Origin: Patescibacteria group bacterium
Lineage (GTDB): Bacteria; Patescibacteriota; Patescibacteriia; UBA1558; S5-K13
Direction: 5' to 3'
Assembly (NCBI GenBank): GCA_028692545.1
Contig: JAQUXC010000004.1
Span: forward strand, 630 to 64,629
DNA length: 64,000 nucleotides
Shown here: piece by piece, positions 3,688 through 63,317 of the stretch
How the letters are laid out: every line of letters starts with the position of its first letter
Position numbering within the stretch: the stretch's first letter is position 1
Notes under the pieces: generated by a model
What the model was told of the DNA's origin: nothing
The model's database searches: none
What the model saw: the letters and a program-made list of their open reading frames with translations, nothing else
Program-made: the position numbers and the translations under genes

Positions 3688-6204
3688 CTATTTCTTCAAA
3701 TAACTCTTCAAATATTCCCCAGTCACACTTTTTTCATTTCTAACAATATCTTCAGGTGTTCCATAAGCAATTACACGACCACCATTTTCTCCACCATCAG
3801 GACCCAAGTCAATTATATAATCCATTGATTTTATAACATGCAAATTATGCTCAATAATCAGAATTGTGTTTCCACGTTCTACAAGTTTGTTTAACACGTG
3901 GAGCAACAATTCAATATCATGATAATGAAGTCCTGTTGTGGGCTCATCCAACAAATACAATGTGCGTTTTCCAAGTGTGTTTGTAAGCTCTTTTGCGAGT
4001 TTTATGCGCTGAGCTTCTCCACCTGAAAGAGTTGTTGCTGATTGTCCCAGCTTCAAATATCCAAGTCCAACTTCTATTAGAACTTTTAATTTATCAGTTA
4101 TAAAGTAATTTCCGTCAAAAAGTTTGTATGCCTCATCAATTGTGAGGTCTAGCACATCAGCAATACTATGATTTTTGTATTTTACTTGTAATGTTTCTCT
4201 GTTAAATCTTTTGCCATGACATACTTCACACTCCACAAGTACTGGTGGTAAAAAATGCATTTCAATAAGGTTAAATCCTGCTCCAGAACACGCTTCACAT
4301 CTTCCACCTGCTCGATTGAATGAAAAACGAGATAATGTATATGCTCTTTCACGTGATTCTGGAAGTTCTGCAAAAAATTCTCTAATTGGTGAAAATATTC
4401 CAGTATATGTTGCTGGATTTGATCGTGGAGTTCGACCAATTGGTGATTGATTTATAATTACTAATTTATCAACATATTCTAATCCTTTTATTTCTTTTAC
4501 ATTTTCTAAATTTGGTTTTGCGGGTCTACTCATAATCTTTGAAACATTTTTGTATAACACATCATATATAAGAGATGATTTTCCACTTCCTGAAACTCCA
4601 GTAATACTAACCATACGGCCAAGAGGAATTTCTACATTTACTCCTTTTAGATTATTTGCTTTTGCACCTATAATTTTTATAGCTCCTTTATTTTTCTCAC
4701 GTCGGTGTGCAGGAACTTCGATTTTTCTCTGTCCTCTTAAATATTGCAAAGTCAAAGATTTTTGGAATTTTGATCGCGACGTAGCCGAAGGCGAAGTCGG
4801 ATCAAGTAATTCTAAAGTATTTCCAATTGCCATGACTTCCCCTCCGTGAACTCCAGCAAGAGGTCCAAGATCTACTAAATAATCTGATTCAAGAATAGTT
4901 CTTTCGTCGTGCTCAACAATTATTACAGTATTATTTTTATCGCGTAATGCTTTTAGAGTTTCAATTAATCTGTCAGTGTCTCTTTCATGGAGTCCAATTG
5001 TTGGCTCATCTAAAACATATAGTGTTCGAGAAAGTTGAGATCCAATCTGTGATGATAATCTTATACGTTGTGCTTCTCCACCTGACAATGTTTCTGCTTC
5101 ACGACTAAGTGATAAATAATTCAATCCAACTTTTGATAAAAACTCATATCTATTTATAATTTGATTAATTACCAAATCAGCAATTGCCTTTTGTCGCTTT
5201 GTCATTTTGTCTTGGAAGTGTTTGAAAAATTCAATTGCCTTATCAATAGACAAATCACAAACTTCTGCAATATTCTTTTTGTTTATTTTTACTGACAATG
5301 CTTCATCACGTAATCTTCTACCATTACATTTGTCACATACTTTTCCTTTGAAACCAATTTTTCCCAAACCAGAACATTTTTCACATGCACCATGAGGAGA
5401 ATTAAATGAAAATAATCTTGGCTCTACTTCTGGAAATGAAAAACTATCATTTGGACAAGTCCAGTTTGACGATAATAAAAATTCTTCTTTGTTTATTTGA
5501 ACAACTACAAGACCTTTACTATATGCTAGTGAACTTTCTACTGCTTCAAATAATCTCGTTTCATCAGTTAGCATTACCTTATCAACTACCAAATCAATGC
5601 TGTGCTTTTTCTTTGGGTCTAATACAATTTTTTCTCGAAGTGAATGCATTTTTCCATCAACTCTAACTTCTCCATAGCCAAGTTTTAGATAATCATAAAG
5701 CATTTGATAATATTCACCTTTTCTGTCCATGACAATTGGTGAAAGTATTACTGCAAAGTCCTTATCACCTACTTTTTTAGAAATAATAATATCTATCATT
5801 TCCTCAAGAGATAATTTTTCTATTTTTGTTCCGCAAAGTGGACAAAATACTTCACCAACTCTCGCATAAAGAATTCTTAAGTAATCATAAATATCAGTAA
5901 GTGTTCCAACTGTAGACCTTGGATTATGTGATAGAGCTTTTTGGTCAATAGAAATTGATGGAGCAAGTCCAATTATTTCATCAACATCAGCGGGTTTTTT
6001 TTGTCCCAAAAATTGTCTCATGTATGGTGAAAGTGACTCAACATATTGACGCTGACCTTCAGCAAAAATTGTATCAAAAGCAAGAGACGATTTCCCACTT
6101 CCAGAAAGTCCTGTTATTACTGTTAATTTGTTGTGCGGAATTTCTAAATCTATGTTTTTTAGATTATGCATTCTCGCACCATGTATAATTATTTTTTCTT
6201 CCAT
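3688..6204 (-). CDS. uvrA: Excinuclease ABC subunit A
   Basis: Two ABC modules ([14 protein letters not shown] and [13 protein letters not shown]), LSGGEAQR signature repeats, and Zn-finger Cys clusters. Confidence 0.95.
4772..4803. repeat. GC-rich palindromic insert, in frame, in the uvrA inter-domain linker
   Basis: gatcgcgacgtagccgaaggcgaagtcggatc encodes [11 protein letters not shown] between ...GNTLELL and [11 protein letters not shown]. The E. coli linker is shorter here (recalled from memory). Confidence 0.5.
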
Positions 6205-16948: not shown

Positions 16949-17037
16949 AGATTTTATTTTTTTATGTTTTTAATTAAAAATAGTAGCTATATTCTCTCAT
17001 TTTTTAGAATTAAAATCAAGTATACAAATAAATACAA

Positions 17038-17180
17038 TGCCAATACCTGCCTGCCCGCCTGCCTGCCGGTAGGCAGGGCAGGCAGGTACAAATGATATAC
17101 CAATTATACAAATGACATTAGTATTATTGGTATAAATTAGTCCGCCTTGGCTTTGCCGTTAGGCGAGACGAGTATATTTA
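17038..17180. repeat. Intergenic repeat element, copy B, interrupted by two GC-rich palindromic inserts
   Basis: Core caaatgatataccaattatacaaatgacattagtattattggtataaattag matches copy A. The inserts are cctgcctgcccgcctgcctgccggtaggcagggcaggcagg (about 17046-17088) and tccgccttggctttgccgttaggcgagacgag (about 17142-17176). Confidence 0.5.
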
Positions 17181-20707: not shown

Positions 20708-21556
20708 TTAAGTTAATAATTTTTTTAAAAATTCATCATCAAATGTTATATGGATACTTTTTTCTTCTAGATTATCAGGGCGCTTTTCGCGAACAATTTT
20801 TAATGAAATTCCTTCTATATCTGTTGGGAGTTTAACAGTATAATTCAAAGGATCTATTTTGTCCTTAGATAAATTCTCATAAATATTTGGAATATCAATA
20901 AATTCCTGATCATCTTCTAATGCCCCCATAGATTTACAAAATTCCGTTGATCCATTTTTTGAAAAACTATAATTAATAGCTTCCATTCCATTATCTTCAA
21001 TTATTTTTTTATTTTCTTCTATTTGAGAATAATTTTTAAACCAGCCACCGGCTTGAGTACCAGATGTACCATAAACCCAACCTCCATCTTGATCAATTTG
21101 ATGCGTAACTGGAATGCCTTTAGCAAATTTTACAAAATGTCTCTCATATTGATTATTAAAATTTTGTAAAAAAATCTCTACTGATAATCTTTTATTAGTA
21201 CGGTCTTCATACTCTTCCTTGTATTTTTTAAAAGCTTCGATATAGCGCTCTATTCTTCTTTGTATTTTTGAAACTATTTCATAATCTTGCTCTAATCCCA
21301 TTTCTTTCATATTTTGGACAATTTCATTTAAACGATTAATTAATCTTTCAACTGGATTTTTTTCTTTTTCAATATCATATTCTTGCATTGTTTTTTCTGC
21401 TTGCTTTTCAGCAATTTTGATCAAAGATTCCTCTTCTTCATGGGTAATATCTATACCTTTAGATAAATCCCTTATATTATTTTCTTTATTAGCACCAATC
21501 ATAGCCTTTTCCTCTGAATCAATATAAGAATCTGGTTGAAATGATTCATTTTCCAT
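20708..21556 (-). CDS. Hypothetical protein
   Basis: ORF only; coiled-coil-like N-terminal half. Confidence 0.5.
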   Translation of the reverse strand: MENESFQPDSYIDSEEKAMIGANKENNIRDLSKGIDITHEEEESLIKIAEKQAEKTMQEYDIEKEKNPVERLINRLNEIVQNMKEMGLEQDYEIVSKIQRRIERYIEAFKKYKEEYEDRTNKRLSVEIFLQNFNNQYERHFVKFAKGIPVTHQIDQDGGWVYGTSGTQAGGWFKNYSQIEENKKIIEDNGMEAINYSFSKNGSTEFCKSMGALEDDQEFIDIPNIYENLSKDKIDPLNYTVKLPTDIEGISLKIVREKRPDNLEEKSIHITFDDEFLKKLLT

Positions 21557-21757
21557 ATTTTTCTTGTCCCGTTGAATAACGGGAATTATTAGTTGATTAA
21601 ATATAAAAACCTATATATATTTTCTCACATTATAGATAAAAGATCAAAACAATATCTTAATAAAAAATACTTTAATGCTTTAATCAATCCTGGTAAGTTG
21701 ATTACTCGAAACATATACTAGTTTAGCTCCGGGGGCATAACTTTCACCCCACCAATT

Positions 21758-21831
21758 GGCTGTCGGGGCAGGACTCGAACCTACAACATCTACGTTAACA
21801 GCGTAGCGTTCTACCATTGAACTACCCGACA
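21758..21831 (-). tRNA. tRNA-Asn (anticodon GTT), CCA encoded
   Basis: Reverse complement TGTCGGGTAGTTCAATGGTAGAAC...CTACG-CTGTTAA-CGTAG...GGTTCGAGTCCTGCCCCGACAGCCA folds as a cloverleaf with a 7-bp acceptor stem. The 21680-21886 ORF overlapping it is spurious. Confidence 0.85.
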
Positions 21832-22017
21832 ATAAAATAAAAATCAGCTTTGCGAGCTGATATTGTAAAACAAAAATAGCTCGCAACTTATCCGAGATTG
21901 TTATTATTATTTAGTTTTGCTATTTTTATTATCATATAAATATAATAACACAAAAATAAATAAATGCAATACACATATTTACTATTATATATTTATATAT
22001 TATAATTATTTTTATCC

Positions 22018-22079
22018 TTCGGGGATCGTCTAATGCTCGCCCGCATCGCTACGCGAAGCGTTGCGAGCGGGGTAGGACA
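22018..22079 (+). pseudogene. Truncated duplicate of the tRNA-Gln 5' part (acceptor/D-arm, about 26 nt) split by a 35-nt GC-rich palindromic insert
   Basis: ttcggggatcgtctaatg[ctcgcccgcatcgctacgcgaagcgttgcgagcgg]ggtaggaca matches 22343-22368 of the intact tRNA on both sides of the insert. Confidence 0.55.
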
Positions 22080-22084
22080 AAATT

Positions 22085-22333
22085 ATGTATTATACATATG
22101 TTTTAAAAAGTAAAAAAGATGATAAACTATATATTGGTTATACTAAAGATTTAGATAATAGATTCAAAGAGCATAATAATGGATTAGTTTTTTCAACTAG
22201 GAATAGAAAGCCATTTGAAATAATATATTTTGAAGCATGTTTAGTTAAAAAAGATGCTATAAAAAGAGAAAAGCAATTAAAAACTGGTTTTGGAAGAACT
22301 TACTTAAATAGAAGGTTGAGTAATTTAAAATAA
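22085..22333 (+). CDS. GIY-YIG domain nuclease (about 82 aa, stand-alone)
   Basis: YTYVLKS...DKLYIGYTKDLDNRFKEHNNG...FEIIYFE...REKQLK. Confidence 0.8.
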   Translation: MYYTYVLKSKKDDKLYIGYTKDLDNRFKEHNNGLVFSTRNRKPFEIIYFEACLVKKDAIKREKQLKTGFGRTYLNRRLSNLK

Positions 22334-22342
22334 AATACCATT

Positions 22343-22416
22343 CGGGGATCGTCTAATGGTAGGACAGCGGGTTCTGGTCCCGTCAATCTGGGTTCGATTC
22401 CTAGTCCCCGAGCCAT
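22343..22416 (+). tRNA. tRNA-Gln (anticodon CTG)
   Basis: TCGGGGATCGTCTAATGGTAGGACAGCGGGTTCTGGTCCCGTCAATCTGGGTTCGATTCCTAGTCCCCGAGCCA. Anticodon stem GCGGG/CCCGT, loop TTCTGGT, T-loop GTTCGATTC. Confidence 0.85.
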
Positions 22417-22494
22417 CGAGAAAGCATTGATATAATCAGTGTTTTTTTGTTTATGATGGTATTAATAAAGAAATCTTTTTTGTTTAATTTAAAA

Positions 22495-24291
22495 TTAGAT
22501 ATTTCTTTTTCTACTATGTCTAACTCTTTCAATTTCAGTTAGATGTTTTTTTCTAAGTCTTATATTTTTTGGAGTAATTTCTAAATATTCATCAGAATTC
22601 ATAATACTCATTCCACTTTCAAGAGTAATTTCTATTGGGGTTACAAGTTTTATTGCATCATCAGCATTTGAAGATCTCATGTTTGTAAGTGCTTTTCCTT
22701 TTATTGGGTTTACTACCATATCCATTCCTTTTGCAGTATTTCCTACAATCATTCCTTCATATACTTCTATATTTGCTTTTATATAAAGTGCTCCCCTTTC
22801 TTGTAAATTGAAAAGTGAAAAACCAAGTGCTTTTCCTGTTGCCATAGAAACCATTGAACCAAGTTTTGTTTTTTCTATTTTTCCAGCATATTTTTTGAAT
22901 CCTATTACACGAGAATACAATATTCCTTCACCTCTTGTATCAACAATAAATTCATTTTTATACCCCAAAAGTCCACGAGTTGGAATTTCAAAAACTATTC
23001 TTGTATGTCCGTGCTCTGGTTTCATTTCTGTCATTACACCACAACGCATTGAAAGTTTTTGAATTATAGTTCCAGACATTTCTTGTGGAACATTTATAGT
23101 TACCTCTTCAAATGGTTCTAATTTTATTCCATCTTGCTCTTTTATAATTACATGTGGTTGAGAAATTTGGAGTTCATATCCTTCTCTTCTTAAATTTTCC
23201 AATAAAATTGCAATATGCATCTCACCTCTACCATAAACTTTGTAAAATTCTTTTGAGGTAAAATCAATTTTGAGTCCTACATTTACTTCCAATTCTTTTT
23301 CTAATCTTTCTTTTAATTGTCTGCTTGTTACAAATTTTCCATCACGACCGGCAAATGGAGAATTATTTACAAGAAAATTCAAACATATTGTTGGTTCATC
23401 TATATTTATATTTGGAAGTGCTTCTTGATTTTCATTTTCATAAATTGTTTCTCCAATATATATATCAGGAAGTCCTGCTATCATTACAATATCACCAGAG
23501 ACAGCAGTTTCCACTTCTTTTCTATTCAAACCCTCAAAAGTAAACAATTTTCCAATTTTCCCTTTTCTAACATTTCCATGGACATCTTTTATAAAAACAT
23601 TTTGTCCTTGACTTATTGTTCCTTCATAAACTCTAGTAACCGCAAGTCTTCCCAAAAAATTATCATAAGCCAAATTAAATGGTTGAACCAAAAGTGGCAT
23701 ATTATCTAATTCTTCGCTCGATGCAACAGGAACTTTTTCCAAAATTATATCAAGAAGTGGTGCAAAATCTTTTGCATCATCATGCATTTTGTGTTTTGCA
23801 ACTCCATCACGTGCAATTGCATATATTGTGGTAAAATCTAATTGTTCATCGCTTGCCCCAAGGTCTAGAAATAATTCAAAAATCATTTCCTTTACTTCGT
23901 CAGGATTTGCAGCTGGTTTATCAATTTTATTTATTACAACAATTGGTTTGAGTCCCAAATTCAAAGATTTTTTCAAAACAAATTTTGTCTGAGGCATTGG
24001 CCCTTCTTGCGCATCAACAACCAAAACTACAGAGTCAATAGATCGCAAAACTCGCTCAACTTCAGATCCAAAGTCAACGTGTCCAGGAGTGTCTACAATA
24101 TTTATCTTTGTATCTTTGTAATAGATAGAAGTATTTTTTGAGTAAATTGTAATTCCTCTTTCTTTTTCTAAGTCATTGCTGTCCATACTTACATCACTAT
24201 TACTCATTCCAGTCTGACGCATCAGCATGTCTGTAATAGTTGTTTTTCCATGGTCAACATGAGCAATAATTGCTATATTTCTTATTTCCAT
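22495..24291 (-). CDS. typA: Translational GTPase TypA/BipA
   Basis: [25 protein letters not shown]-motifs; 598 aa. Confidence 0.95.
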
Positions 24292-59206: not shown

Positions 59207-59239
59207 TACAATAAATGAGTCATAAAATCAATCTTACCT

Positions 59240-59268
59240 CACCCCCGGGGTTGCCAACCCCGGGGGTG
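59240..59268. repeat. Perfect GC-rich palindrome cacccccgggg-ttgccaa-ccccgggggtg
   Basis: 29-nt dyad in the divergent promoter region. It has the same cac...ttgccaa...gtg frame as the REP at 63193-63221. Confidence 0.6.
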
Positions 59269-59285
59269 GGAGTTAAAATTAAACT

Positions 59286-63126: not shown

Positions 63127-63192
63127 TTATTTTTCTATAATTATTAACTTATAAATATTCTATAATATATAATCTAAATAGGCAATTCTCTC

Positions 63193-63221
63193 CACGTCCG
63201 ACGTTGCCAACGTCGGACGTG
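63193..63221. repeat. REP-like palindrome cacgtccgacgttg-c-caacgtcggacgtg (5' flank of the RAYT gene)
   Basis: 14-bp perfect arms; seen directly. Confidence 0.7.
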
Positions 63222-63317
63222 TGGTATATAGTATTGACTTTGATATATTCTGAAGTAAAATATAAACATGGGTCGCAAAAGCGATCTTTTTGTTTTAATA
63301 AATAAAGAAAAGCGATT

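Follow-up and report, generated by a model that had tools for sequence, protein, structure and literature searches.

There are thousands of single-domain GIY-YIG proteins, and to our knowledge characterization extends only to the Ssn enzymes of the Neisseria type. These nucleases are single-domain proteins of about 94 amino acids whose genes are flanked by hairpin repeats of 20 to 50 nucleotides (nt), and they cut single-stranded DNA beside the hairpin (PMC11893778). The Ssn/NTS/SRM system, which corresponds to cd10448, was described by Chenal et al. in 2025, with Rickettsia among the SRM-rich genera; the words tRNA and Patescibacteria each occur zero times in that paper (PMC11893778). Homing genes offer a second point of comparison. 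T4 SegB is a GIY-YIG enzyme within a tRNA cluster (PMC2330249), and in fungal mitochondria a duplicated terminal segment keeps the target gene whole and a pseudo-fragment is left (PMC6279837).

Here we describe a GIY-YIG gene and a hairpin at a tRNA-Gln gene of a member of the Patescibacteria, for which the Ssn nuclease and its hairpin repeat appear, by analogy, to be the closest described system. The whole stretch of DNA that was analyzed, 64 kb in length, is called the window, and the features of the locus are as follows.

21978 to 22006, plus strand: sigma-70-like promoter from a consensus scan (TTTACT, 17 nt, TATAAT; 10 of 12 consensus matches)
22019 to 22035, plus strand: displaced tRNA-Gln nt 1 to 17 (acceptor 5' strand, D-stem 5' strand, part of the D-loop)
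22036 to 22071, no strand assigned: 36-nt GC-rich hairpin, inserted between nt 17 and 18 of the displaced tRNA-Gln copy
22072 to 22079, plus strand: displaced tRNA-Gln nt 18 to 25 (remainder of the D-loop, D-stem 3' strand)
22085 to 22333, plus strand: gene for the 82-amino-acid single-domain GIY-YIG protein, stop codon included (Pfam PF01541 match)
22342 to 22415, plus strand: intact tRNA-Gln(CTG), beginning 8 nt past the stop of the open reading frame (ORF) (ARAGORN, Rfam)
22417 to 22459, plus strand: terminator-like stem-loop with a T-run from a terminator scan, a candidate end of the transcription unit

The intact tRNA-Gln scores 55.8 bits against the Rfam tRNA family, and its nt 1 to 17, TCGGGGATCGTCTAATG, occur exactly twice in the window, at 22019 to 22035 and 22342 to 22358. 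Chance alone would produce about 0.02 matches to this 17-mer when as many as 3 mismatches are tolerated, and two or more copies were present in 0 of 100 shuffles. Beyond the hairpin the displaced copy continues with tRNA-Gln nt 18 to 25, GTAGGACA, at 22072 to 22079, identical to 22359 to 22366. Together the two pieces thus make a repeat of 25 nt (26 with the T that both copies have at position -1), with a start-to-start distance of 323 nt. The initial annotation had recognized this duplication of the tRNA 5' end, allowing that it might be a chance similarity, as well as the palindrome that splits it and the 82-residue GIY-YIG ORF in between. All three stand and the chance match does not; the repeat length of 26 nt, the spacing of 325 nt and the palindrome length of 35 nt are corrected here to 25, 323 and 36 nt. 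It had also placed tRNA-Asn immediately upstream as part of the picture; that gene, tRNA-Asn(GTT) at 21757 to 21831 on the minus strand (ARAGORN, Rfam), is a divergent neighbor 187 nt from the structure and no part of it.

The 306 bp between the two tRNA-Gln copies hold the hairpin, tRNA nt 18 to 25, short spacers and the GIY-YIG ORF, and nothing else, and the hairpin junctions are precise, with no tRNA base missing or doubled. The tRNA-Gln gene stays functional through the second copy of its terminal segment. The promoter lies 12 nt 5' of the displaced fragment and is presumably the native tRNA-Gln promoter, which may now drive the fragment, the ORF and the tRNA as a single transcript. The ATG follows the hairpin after 13 nt, and an AGGA at 22075 to 22078, within the displaced D-arm and 6 nt 5' of the ATG, is suitably placed to serve as a ribosome-binding site. 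The insert is not a tRNA intron, group I or other, since a complete, uninterrupted tRNA-Gln follows, and Rfam detected no intron or other family from 21500 to 22700 at E values up to 10.

The ORF product matches the Pfam GIY-YIG family (PF01541) over residues 1 to 71 with an E value of 7.8e-18 and 65 bits, well above the cutoff of 22.6. The AlphaFold2 model (pLDDT 94.5) runs strand, strand, helix, strand, helix, helix, in keeping with the GIY-YIG superfamily fold, in which helices pack on a sheet of three strands, with its conserved Tyr, Tyr, Arg, His and Glu. These residues, Y5, Y16, R26, H30 and E62, are invariant across 34 relatives, and from family knowledge we take them to be catalytic. 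The initial annotation had suggested modeling the protein against Slx1-like families; in Foldseek the best matches of the model were the UPF0213 protein BH0048 and the Slx1 nuclease domain (rmsd 1.5 A), and the I-TevI catalytic domain was also matched. The best sequence match among solved structures was likewise to UPF0213 proteins (1zg2 profile, E value of 7.6e-9), so that UPF0213 (YhbQ, BH0048, EF2693) and the Slx1 domain lead in both sequence and fold. Slx1 differs in having an additional zinc-finger domain and a partner, Slx4, and UPF0213 in having no described hairpin or tRNA context. The relatives of the 82-residue protein are 78 to 84 residues long, and the family comprises 4,522 cluster representatives at E values of 1e-10 or below. 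Among 2.9 million viral contigs only 1 relative was found, which led us to reject phage as the vector.

The initial annotation had read the locus as a small selfish element that entered a tRNA gene and regenerated its 5' end, and the layout does recur at many tRNAs with the host's own sequence, beside other GIY-YIG copies. Among 80 homologous loci encoding relatives of the ORF, mostly from Patescibacteria, 57 have a co-oriented tRNA (50 loci) or tmRNA (7 loci) directly 3' of the ORF. Counting the copy in the window, 44 of the 50 tRNA-adjacent copies have a tRNA that either begins no more than 20 nt past the stop codon or overlaps the end of the ORF; 13 tRNA identities are targeted. A strict automated test for nt 1 to X of the tRNA, a GC-rich palindrome of 35 to 73 nt, and the tRNA from nt X+1 onward, all upstream of the ORF, identified a hairpin-split 5' fragment of the locus's own tRNA in at least 35 of the 50, and more were apparent by eye. 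The position X clusters at 9 to 10, 12 to 13 and 17 to 19, and it differs between closely related elements at one tRNA type. A duplication of the leader upstream of tRNA +1 is mostly absent or uninformative, both leaders being AT-rich and ending in TAT or CAT. The layout also occurs in other forms. One locus (L105) is a mirror version at a 3' end, with tRNA-Val, the ORF and then a hairpin-split 3' fragment, and two involve protein genes, L040 at the 5' end of an epimerase gene and L205 with glyS, the ORF and then the old, hairpin-split glyS 3' end. In full-text searches of the literature, no account emerged of GIY-YIG genes accompanied by tRNA fragments that a hairpin splits. The combination of nuclease, hairpin and duplicated gene end looks like an apparently undescribed route by which a minimal selfish element occupies essential genes.

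The hairpin, CTCGCCCGCATCGCTACGCGAAGCGTTGCGAGCGGG, is 72% GC against a window mean of about 27%, occurs once in the 64-kb window, and folds as single-stranded DNA at -14.6 kcal/mol (z = -3.8). Close variants of it adjoin homologous ORFs in 53 of the 80 loci, and 55 of 91 ORF copies in relatives have a hairpin nearby, at most 60 nt upstream or 130 nt downstream. The stems carry compensatory substitutions (10 double-sided cells, a number equalled by 0 of 500 shuffles). The class of hairpin tracks the clade of the ORF: a subfamily at 40 to 46% identity has a different, double hairpin, and another is flanked by CCCGTTAGAGAC inverted repeats. At L019 the ORF is situated within the arms of a hairpin, and an insertion sequence-like order of hairpin, gene and hairpin was seen there and at L031, L039 and L045. 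Some hairpins are nested within the loops of others. The hairpin is not an incidental interruption but a structured and conserved companion of the nuclease, and we propose, by analogy with Ssn, that 22036 to 22071 may be the recognition hairpin of the enzyme. The hairpin also occurs alone, as an element of its own: metagenome contigs contain at least 120 exact matches to its pattern, in either orientation, and a GIY-YIG gene is near only 8 of the 81 copies read; since most solo copies lie far from such genes, the proposed link between nuclease and hairpin is based on association and on the Ssn analogy. Other identities were considered for the hairpin. It has no match in Rfam 15 at E values up to 10, it is not a terminator, having no T-run 3' of it, and the idea of an RNA element in the 5' untranslated region that is tied to one strand is weakened by hairpins that face either way with respect to the ORF (18 R versus 10 F).

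The traits shared with Ssn are a single-domain GIY-YIG protein of about 80 to 95 residues without a DNA-binding domain, a gene beside a 20- to 50-nt hairpin-forming inverted repeat, and a hairpin scattered as many solo copies whose type covaries with the protein. The differences are the Patescibacteria host, the single hairpin inside a duplicated tRNA, tmRNA or protein gene end, and the position of the nuclease gene, which fills the gap from the fragment to the regenerated gene within the tRNA transcription unit. Integrative elements, such as tyrosine-integrase islands and prophages, share the use of tRNA and tmRNA genes as insertion sites and the regeneration of the gene, a partial tRNA copy forming a direct repeat (25 nt here). 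Those elements, with which the initial annotation had compared the scar, span kilobases, carry an integrase gene and as a rule duplicate the 3' end. The insert here measures 323 bp and has no integrase, and across loci it is mostly 5' ends that are involved; neither a tyrosine nor a serine recombinase is present in the insert, and an integrase-type island was rejected. In REP/RAYT and IS200/IS605 systems, too, small GC-rich extragenic palindromes flank the gene of a nuclease dedicated to them, and insertion is precise, leaving the target site unduplicated where the hairpin sits. The enzyme of those systems, an HUH/Y1 transposase, works through covalent intermediates; a GIY-YIG hydrolase cannot itself rejoin strands. 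Rickettsia palindromic elements and the GC clusters of yeast mitochondria are also short palindromes that invade coding or RNA genes of AT-rich genomes; we know of no nuclease partner or compensating gene-end duplication in the classical accounts of either.

The fragments at these loci are fresh. Across them, 422 of 438 bases (about 96%) equal those of the adjacent host tRNA, and 29 of the 35 fragments show no mismatch. Every intact tRNA copy pairs with the 3' acceptor strand that belongs to it, and the defects are in the fragments. No chimeric tRNA with an imported 5' half was seen, the intact copies in the tRNA loci examined all matching their own 3' strand, and import of 5' halves at tRNA loci was rejected on this ground. 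Homology as the driving force does not, taken alone, account for how a new tRNA species is first colonized, because a 5' half of foreign origin would not pair properly in the acceptor stem of the host.

Occupancy also varies between close relatives. A strain whose TypA is 97% identical and whose flanks are near-identical (L081) has neither ORF nor hairpin at this site, where it carries the remnant TTCGGGGATCGT and about 95 nt of filler that is no simple deletion derivative of the element in the window. This looks like a presence/absence polymorphism, with a fragment and filler retained in the relative. The empty site that the initial annotation had suggested seeking in related genomes was not found in clean form among the TypA relatives, P0121 being a remnant allele; in P0122, with 82% TypA identity, synteny is gone.

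On balance we consider it probable that the locus is one copy of a widespread selfish module of two parts, an Ssn-like, hairpin-directed nuclease and its hairpin. The first part would be the single-domain GIY-YIG nuclease of about 80 residues, related to Slx1, UPF0213 and Ssn, and the second the GC-rich hairpin of about 36 nt, which the nuclease would recognize as single-stranded DNA. The module would settle at the end of a conserved, strongly transcribed gene, a safe and well-expressed site, here the tRNA-Gln 5' end. The outer copy of tRNA nt 1 to 25, with the hairpin, would be dead and the inner copy would supply the complete tRNA, with the ORF exactly between them. The ORF would be transcribed from the tRNA promoter and probably translated from the AGGA of the old D-arm, and RNase P would release the tRNA from the joint transcript. 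As for spread, from the action of the nuclease on the hairpin to the recombination pathway and the chemistry of insertion, we infer that a nick at the hairpin could make the flanking tRNA-derived sequence recombinogenic, and that homologous tRNA loci in related genomes may then receive a copy of the whole unit, giving homing-like rounds of invasion, decay and re-invasion. The variation of X among close elements argues against simple whole-unit copying.

In a different account of targeting, the protein itself would hold no information on the target; instead, the flanks of the hairpin would define the target, and the fragment would act as a re-writable homology guide. The strand with the hairpin would pair with a homologous, hairpin-free strand, contributed by incoming DNA, by a sister copy or via the transcript, and the hairpin would be extruded as a branch at X; the Slx1-like nuclease would cut at the branch, and repair would copy hairpin and ORF into the naive allele. 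Such a guide would account for fragments that are about 96% host-identical even though the ORFs of the closest pairs are saturated (dS above 1), for the use of tRNAs, tmRNA and protein genes alike by a single protein family, and for a hairpin that is near-identical when read on either strand. We hold this account to be doubtful, with some chance of being right. Homology- or structure-directed targeting, if true, would make this an unusually small programmable nuclease system.

A classical free-standing homing endonuclease, the other comparison made in the initial annotation, would cut the double-stranded tRNA D-arm, and double-strand-break repair would copy in the ORF with a replacement 5' end; the hairpin would be an unrelated palindromic mini-element lodged in the sole neutral DNA nearby, the dead fragment. 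Much of the layout is familiar from the T4 Seg proteins and fungal mitochondrial genes, namely an ORF-only cassette with tight boundaries at a conserved gene, apparent presence or absence among close relatives, and a duplicated terminal segment with a pseudo-fragment as in the fungal genes. ORF lineages are also target-specific, with tmRNA, Val(GAC), Ile(TAT) and His clades; the hairpin is mobile independently of the nuclease; and the intact glyS end of L205 differs from the displaced one at 5 synonymous and 6 nonsynonymous codons, as if it had been imported. The protein itself does not fit, however: its 82 residues are the catalytic domain only, with no C-terminal or other DNA-binding domain, and its structure is nearer to Slx1/UPF0213 (TM score of 0.69) than to I-TevI (0.50). 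One near-identical protein family at 13 tRNA types, tmRNA and protein genes is ill-suited to protein-encoded specificity, the hairpin covaries in class with the ORF clade and is found in nearly every dead fragment, and the intact downstream tRNA would stay open to self-cleavage. We therefore regard classical homing as rather improbable.

The nuclease and hairpin could instead be a domesticated host system that, for instance, restricts or steers the recombination of incoming single-stranded DNA, as SsnA does in Neisseria, where it modulates natural transformation (PMC11893778). The tRNA-adjacent site would then provide strong constitutive expression only, and the duplications would be old scars. 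The ORF is indeed under strong purifying selection (dN/dS of 0.16 against the nearest relative and 0.03 to 0.16 across pairs, with dS saturated), which would also fit a host-useful function; ORFs are intact in thousands of relatives, and the family is nearly absent from viral contigs (1 locus). Old vertical insertions, however, would have let dead fragments of 9 to 25 nt decay, and these are 96% host-identical. The ORF-less 97% relative, tandem identical copies at L001, nearest ORF relatives under different phylum labels, and decayed remnants and piles of old fragments at L020, L064 and L081 likewise speak against a host system, which we consider quite improbable. That no element exists at all, the repeat being a chance similarity, a product of replication slippage or an assembly artifact in AT-rich genomes rich in short repeats, has practically no prospect of being correct, given the 17-mer expectation, an identical 82-residue protein in 3 independent contigs, and recurrence across dozens of independent assemblies.

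The locus and the pattern of its family provide a concrete, testable anatomy of a nuclease and hairpin pair in genomes: the ends of essential conserved genes, a compensating terminal duplication, and a hairpin in the dead copy. The annotation of Patescibacteria is affected as well, since gene callers run ORFs through the tRNA fragment and the hairpin, pseudo-fragments of tRNAs are common, and hairpins lie in frame within coding genes. Among the 81 solitary hairpin copies, 46 are inside long open frames, the 36 nt of the hairpin amounting to 12 codons.

The tRNA-Gln locus of the window is, as we consider established, one copy of a recurrent mobile or selfish module consisting of a nuclease gene and a hairpin, in which the tRNA is kept functional by duplication of its end. 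The small selfish element with a regenerated 5' end proposed in the initial annotation is upheld in that form. The parts of the locus are as follows.

21757-21831, strand opposite to tRNA-Gln: tRNA-Asn(GTT), by ARAGORN and Rfam
3' end at 22006: sigma-70-like promoter, 12 nt before the fragment
22019-22035: displaced tRNA-Gln nucleotides 1 to 17, exact repeat
22036-22071: GC-rich palindromic insert of 36 nt, precisely between tRNA nucleotides 17 and 18
22072-22079: displaced tRNA-Gln nucleotides 18 to 25, where the tRNA sequence picks up again after the insert
22085-22333: 82-aa GIY-YIG open reading frame (ORF), its ATG preceded by AAATT directly after displaced nucleotides 18 to 25
22342-22415, plus strand: intact tRNA-Gln(CTG), by ARAGORN and Rfam
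downstream of the intact tRNA-Gln: terminator-like hairpin

The 5'-end duplication and its interruption by a palindrome were thus correctly described at the outset, but the palindrome measures 36 nt rather than 35, the spacing is 323 nt rather than 325, and the tRNA-Asn, noted as immediately upstream, is a divergent gene that is not colinear with it. The repeat is beyond chance, since the tRNA-Gln 17-mer, with up to three mismatches allowed, has two matches in the whole 64-kb window against 0.02 expected. GC content is 72% in the insert against about 27% in the window as a whole. The insert is present there as a single copy, and as single-stranded DNA it has a folding energy of -14.6 kcal/mol (z = -3.8). 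An AGGA from the old D-arm lies 6 nt 5' of the ORF start, and only 8 nt separate the stop codon from the intact tRNA-Gln. Given the promoter-like site 5' of the fragment and the terminator-like hairpin 3' of the tRNA, the fragment, hairpin, ORF and tRNA seem to form a single transcription unit.

The ORF between the partial and the intact tRNA-Gln is a GIY-YIG protein (Pfam GIY-YIG, E = 7.8e-18), as first proposed, and no NCBIfam model matched it at or above its own cutoff. The suggested comparison with Slx1-like families gave matches by two methods. A profile of 34 relatives searched against solved structures placed the UPF0213 proteins BH0048 (E = 7.6e-9) and EF2693 at the top and Slx1 next, and with an AlphaFold2 model (pLDDT, 94.5) the best Foldseek matches were BH0048 and the Slx1 nuclease domain (TM 0.69, rmsd 1.5 A), with I-TevI below these (TM 0.50). 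The 82-aa protein is the catalytic domain alone, and Y5, Y16, R26, H30, and E62 are invariant among relatives. An identical protein is recorded in a Patescibacteria MAG, relatives with 63 to 74% identity are spread over many candidate phyla, and an exhaustive profile search returned 4522 cluster representatives at E <= 1e-10. Many predicted relatives (database proteins P0060, P0099, P0110, and many of P0241-P0390) carry N-terminal extensions of 20 to 50 residues, which are a systematic annotation artifact of the database models, arising because gene callers translate the GC-rich hairpin and the tRNA fragment.

The same arrangement recurred among 80 fetched genomic loci encoding relatives of the ORF. 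A co-oriented tRNA lay 3' of the ORF in 50 of these and a tmRNA in 7; in 44 of the 50 tRNA-adjacent copies, the window included, the tRNA began within 20 nt of the ORF stop or overlapped the ORF end. The targets were tRNA-Gln, the commonest, and those for Lys, Val, Ile, His, Met, Thr, Leu, Asn, Glu, Arg, and Ala. We scored a split fragment upstream of the ORF as 6 nt of tRNA, a palindromic insert of 25 to 124 nt with at least 55% GC, and the next 6 nt of tRNA, allowing at most one mismatch. Thirty-five of the 50 copies were positive, so the proposed search for other GIY-YIG genes beside tRNA fragments did find them, and further cases were plain on inspection by eye. The fragment derived from the same host's adjacent tRNA in every positive case, with 422 of 438 bases matching and 29 of the 35 fragments perfect; where the two copies differed, the defect was in the fragment and the intact copy paired with its own 3' acceptor strand. 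The last tRNA nucleotide before the hairpin clustered at positions 9 to 10 (13 loci), 12 to 13 (6 loci), and 17 to 19 (8 loci), corresponding to the edges and loop of the D-arm, and differed among close relatives. The order fragment, hairpin, ORF, tRNA is a trait of the family.

The inserts share the arms CCYGCCYGC...GCRGGCRGG, and many are nearly identical 36-mers, with CCCGCCTGCAACGCTATGCGTAGCATTGCGGGCAGG found in six loci. Both orientations occur, because the hairpin in both loci L001 and L002 reads exactly as CCCGCCTGCAACGCTATGCGTAGCATTGCGGGCAGG on the opposite strand; upstream of ORFs, 18 were oriented one way and 10 the other, and orientation also varied among tmRNA loci of like context. 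The two strands are nearly alike (CCYGCCYGC A AYGC TAY GCRT AGCRTT GCRGGCRGG). Compensatory substitutions favor pairing in a 9-bp outer stem and an inner one (10 double-sided cells, reached in 0 of 500 shuffles) and also back an alternative pairing register. Some hairpins are nested within the loops of others. Hairpin class tracks ORF clade: the window's clade has the type GCTACGC...AGCGTTGC, a Lys/Thr/Val clade has GCCTGAG...GATGGC, a subfamily with 40 to 46% identity (L009 and L041) has a different double hairpin at tRNA-Gln position 22, the subfamily in L031, L039, and L045 has CCCGTTAGAGAC / GTCTCTAACGGG inverted repeats at its bounds, and in L019 the ORF is enclosed by hairpin arms. Judged from these sequences, the hairpin is a conserved partner of the nuclease and not an accident. 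At L039 (1480-2300), an in-frame fusion joins the ORF to the beginning of pilin-like (GFTLIE) genes, and this one locus has two copies.

In all forms, whether at a tRNA, a tmRNA, a mirror-image site or a protein gene, the hairpin sits in the dead copy, and the ORF, where present, separates the dead copy from the intact gene and runs in the same direction as the latter. At tmRNA loci (L004, L008, L021, L028, L034, L037, and L051), the order is smpB, ORF, GGGG, hairpin, tmRNA, with the hairpin adjoining tmRNA position +1; no duplication is needed, since the hairpin's terminal GGG stands in for the displaced 5' end. L021 has an additional hairpin within the tmRNA. The mirror form in L105 consists of an intact tRNA-Val, the ORF, and then a hairpin-split T-arm fragment, and L020 and L029 have tRNA 3' fragments with the hairpin in the anticodon loop or T-loop. 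A run of decayed tRNA-Gln 3' fragments also follows the intact tRNA-Gln in L020 (1100-1400), with a different palindrome in each (anticodon loop, T-loop, acceptor stem). Among protein genes, L040 has the N-terminal codons of an NAD-epimerase gene duplicated, and the window ORF's closest relatives (72 to 74% identity), in L205-L210, lie 3' of glyS, the old, hairpin-split glyS 3' end following the ORF. The old and new ends in L205 differ by 5 synonymous and 6 nonsynonymous codons, and the synonymous changes hint that the functional end arrived with the element. The hairpin in L069 (150-360, minus strand) interrupts a tRNA-Leu(CAG) at about position 22 and encloses a second, complete tRNA-Leu(CAG) in its loop; the palindrome thus carries the replacement gene inside itself.

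The ORF is under strong purifying selection (dN/dS, 0.03 to 0.16), with dS above 1 even for the closest pairs at one tRNA type; nevertheless, the dead fragments still match the host tRNA at about 96% of positions. Gene conversion could keep fragments this fresh, but they are mostly too short for efficient recombination, making repeated re-insertion the more likely source. L001 carries two identical units in tandem, and L064 and L020 carry decayed units. The nearest ORF neighbors often bear different candidate-phylum labels, some of them clearly unreliable, and the family is almost absent from viral contigs. An empty site was sought in related genomes, and L081, a related-strain allele with nearly identical flanks, the same tRNA-Asn, tRNA-Gln, typA order and a 97% identical TypA, has neither hairpin nor ORF. 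In the interval (5450-5560) that corresponds to window positions 22019-22341, L081 retains a 12-nt tRNA-Gln fragment, TTCGGGGATCGT, and AT-rich filler of about 95 nt ahead of the intact tRNA-Gln. Within the filler are GGACAAGATT (cf. GGACAAAATT in the window) and a small TCCAT...ATGGA palindrome, and it is not a simple deletion derivative of the window element. We read the pair as a presence/absence polymorphism without a clean empty site.

The closest described system, compared by description, is the Ssn family, defined by sequence clade cd10448, whose proteins are single-domain GIY-YIG enzymes of about 94 aa that cleave single-stranded DNA beside a hairpin; hairpin repeats of 20 to 50 nt lie on either side of their genes, a "hairpin-gene-hairpin" layout noted as insertion-sequence-like (PMC11893778). 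Neither tRNA nor Patescibacteria comes up in that paper, and in open-access full-text literature we found no description of a GIY-YIG gene with a hairpin-split tRNA fragment. The likeness first drawn to homing endonucleases and integrative elements holds in part: integrative elements likewise regenerate tRNA genes, but the window insert has no integrase and its protein no DNA-binding domain. It is rather unlikely that targeting is done by the hairpin-split fragment itself, through homology and branched structure. We favor, with moderate confidence, a selfish nuclease-and-hairpin module working by hairpin nicking. Like Ssn enzymes, the nuclease would recognize its hairpin in single-stranded DNA, and nicking there could leave the flanks derived from the tRNA prone to recombination. 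A copy ordered fragment, hairpin, fragment, ORF, whether circular or linear, might then integrate at the homologous gene by a single crossover or ends-in event; a crossover left of the hairpin would give the 5' type and one to its right the 3' type, the remaining outcomes presumably being lethal. The tRNA promoter would drive expression.

Hairpins also occur alone. A scan of metagenome contigs with a degenerate 36-nt pattern yielded at least 120 exact matches, and among the matches listed we read 81 copies (contigs L085-L164). Only 8 of these had a GIY-YIG gene within 900 nt, and 11 had a tRNA within 600 nt. Forty-six fell within frames that stay open for 120 codons or more, 36 nt being 12 codons, and in L095, L099, and L156, for example, lysine-rich proteins hold in-frame hairpins, which is reminiscent of Rickettsia palindromic elements. 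Short tandem repeats adjoin many solo hairpins (for example, in L098, L110, L124, L158, and L163). L157 has, with no ORF, a fragment, hairpin, fragment, 40 nt, and an intact tRNA-Lys; L089 is arranged similarly with a spacer of only 6 nt.

The window holds other GC-rich palindromes. One, CCTGCCTGCCCGCCTGCCTGCCGGTAGGCAGGGCAGGCAGG (17037-17091), is intergenic between divergent genes; its type also occurs in L067, 40 nt 3' of a GIY-YIG ORF, and at L023 627-655 and may be another hairpin class of the nuclease/hairpin system. Two perfect palindromes, CACCCCCGGGGTTGCCAACCCCGGGGGTG (59232-59276) and CACGTCCGACGTTGCCAACGTCGGACGTG (63190-63224), share the central loop GTTGCCAAC, and both lie in AT-rich intergenic DNA.
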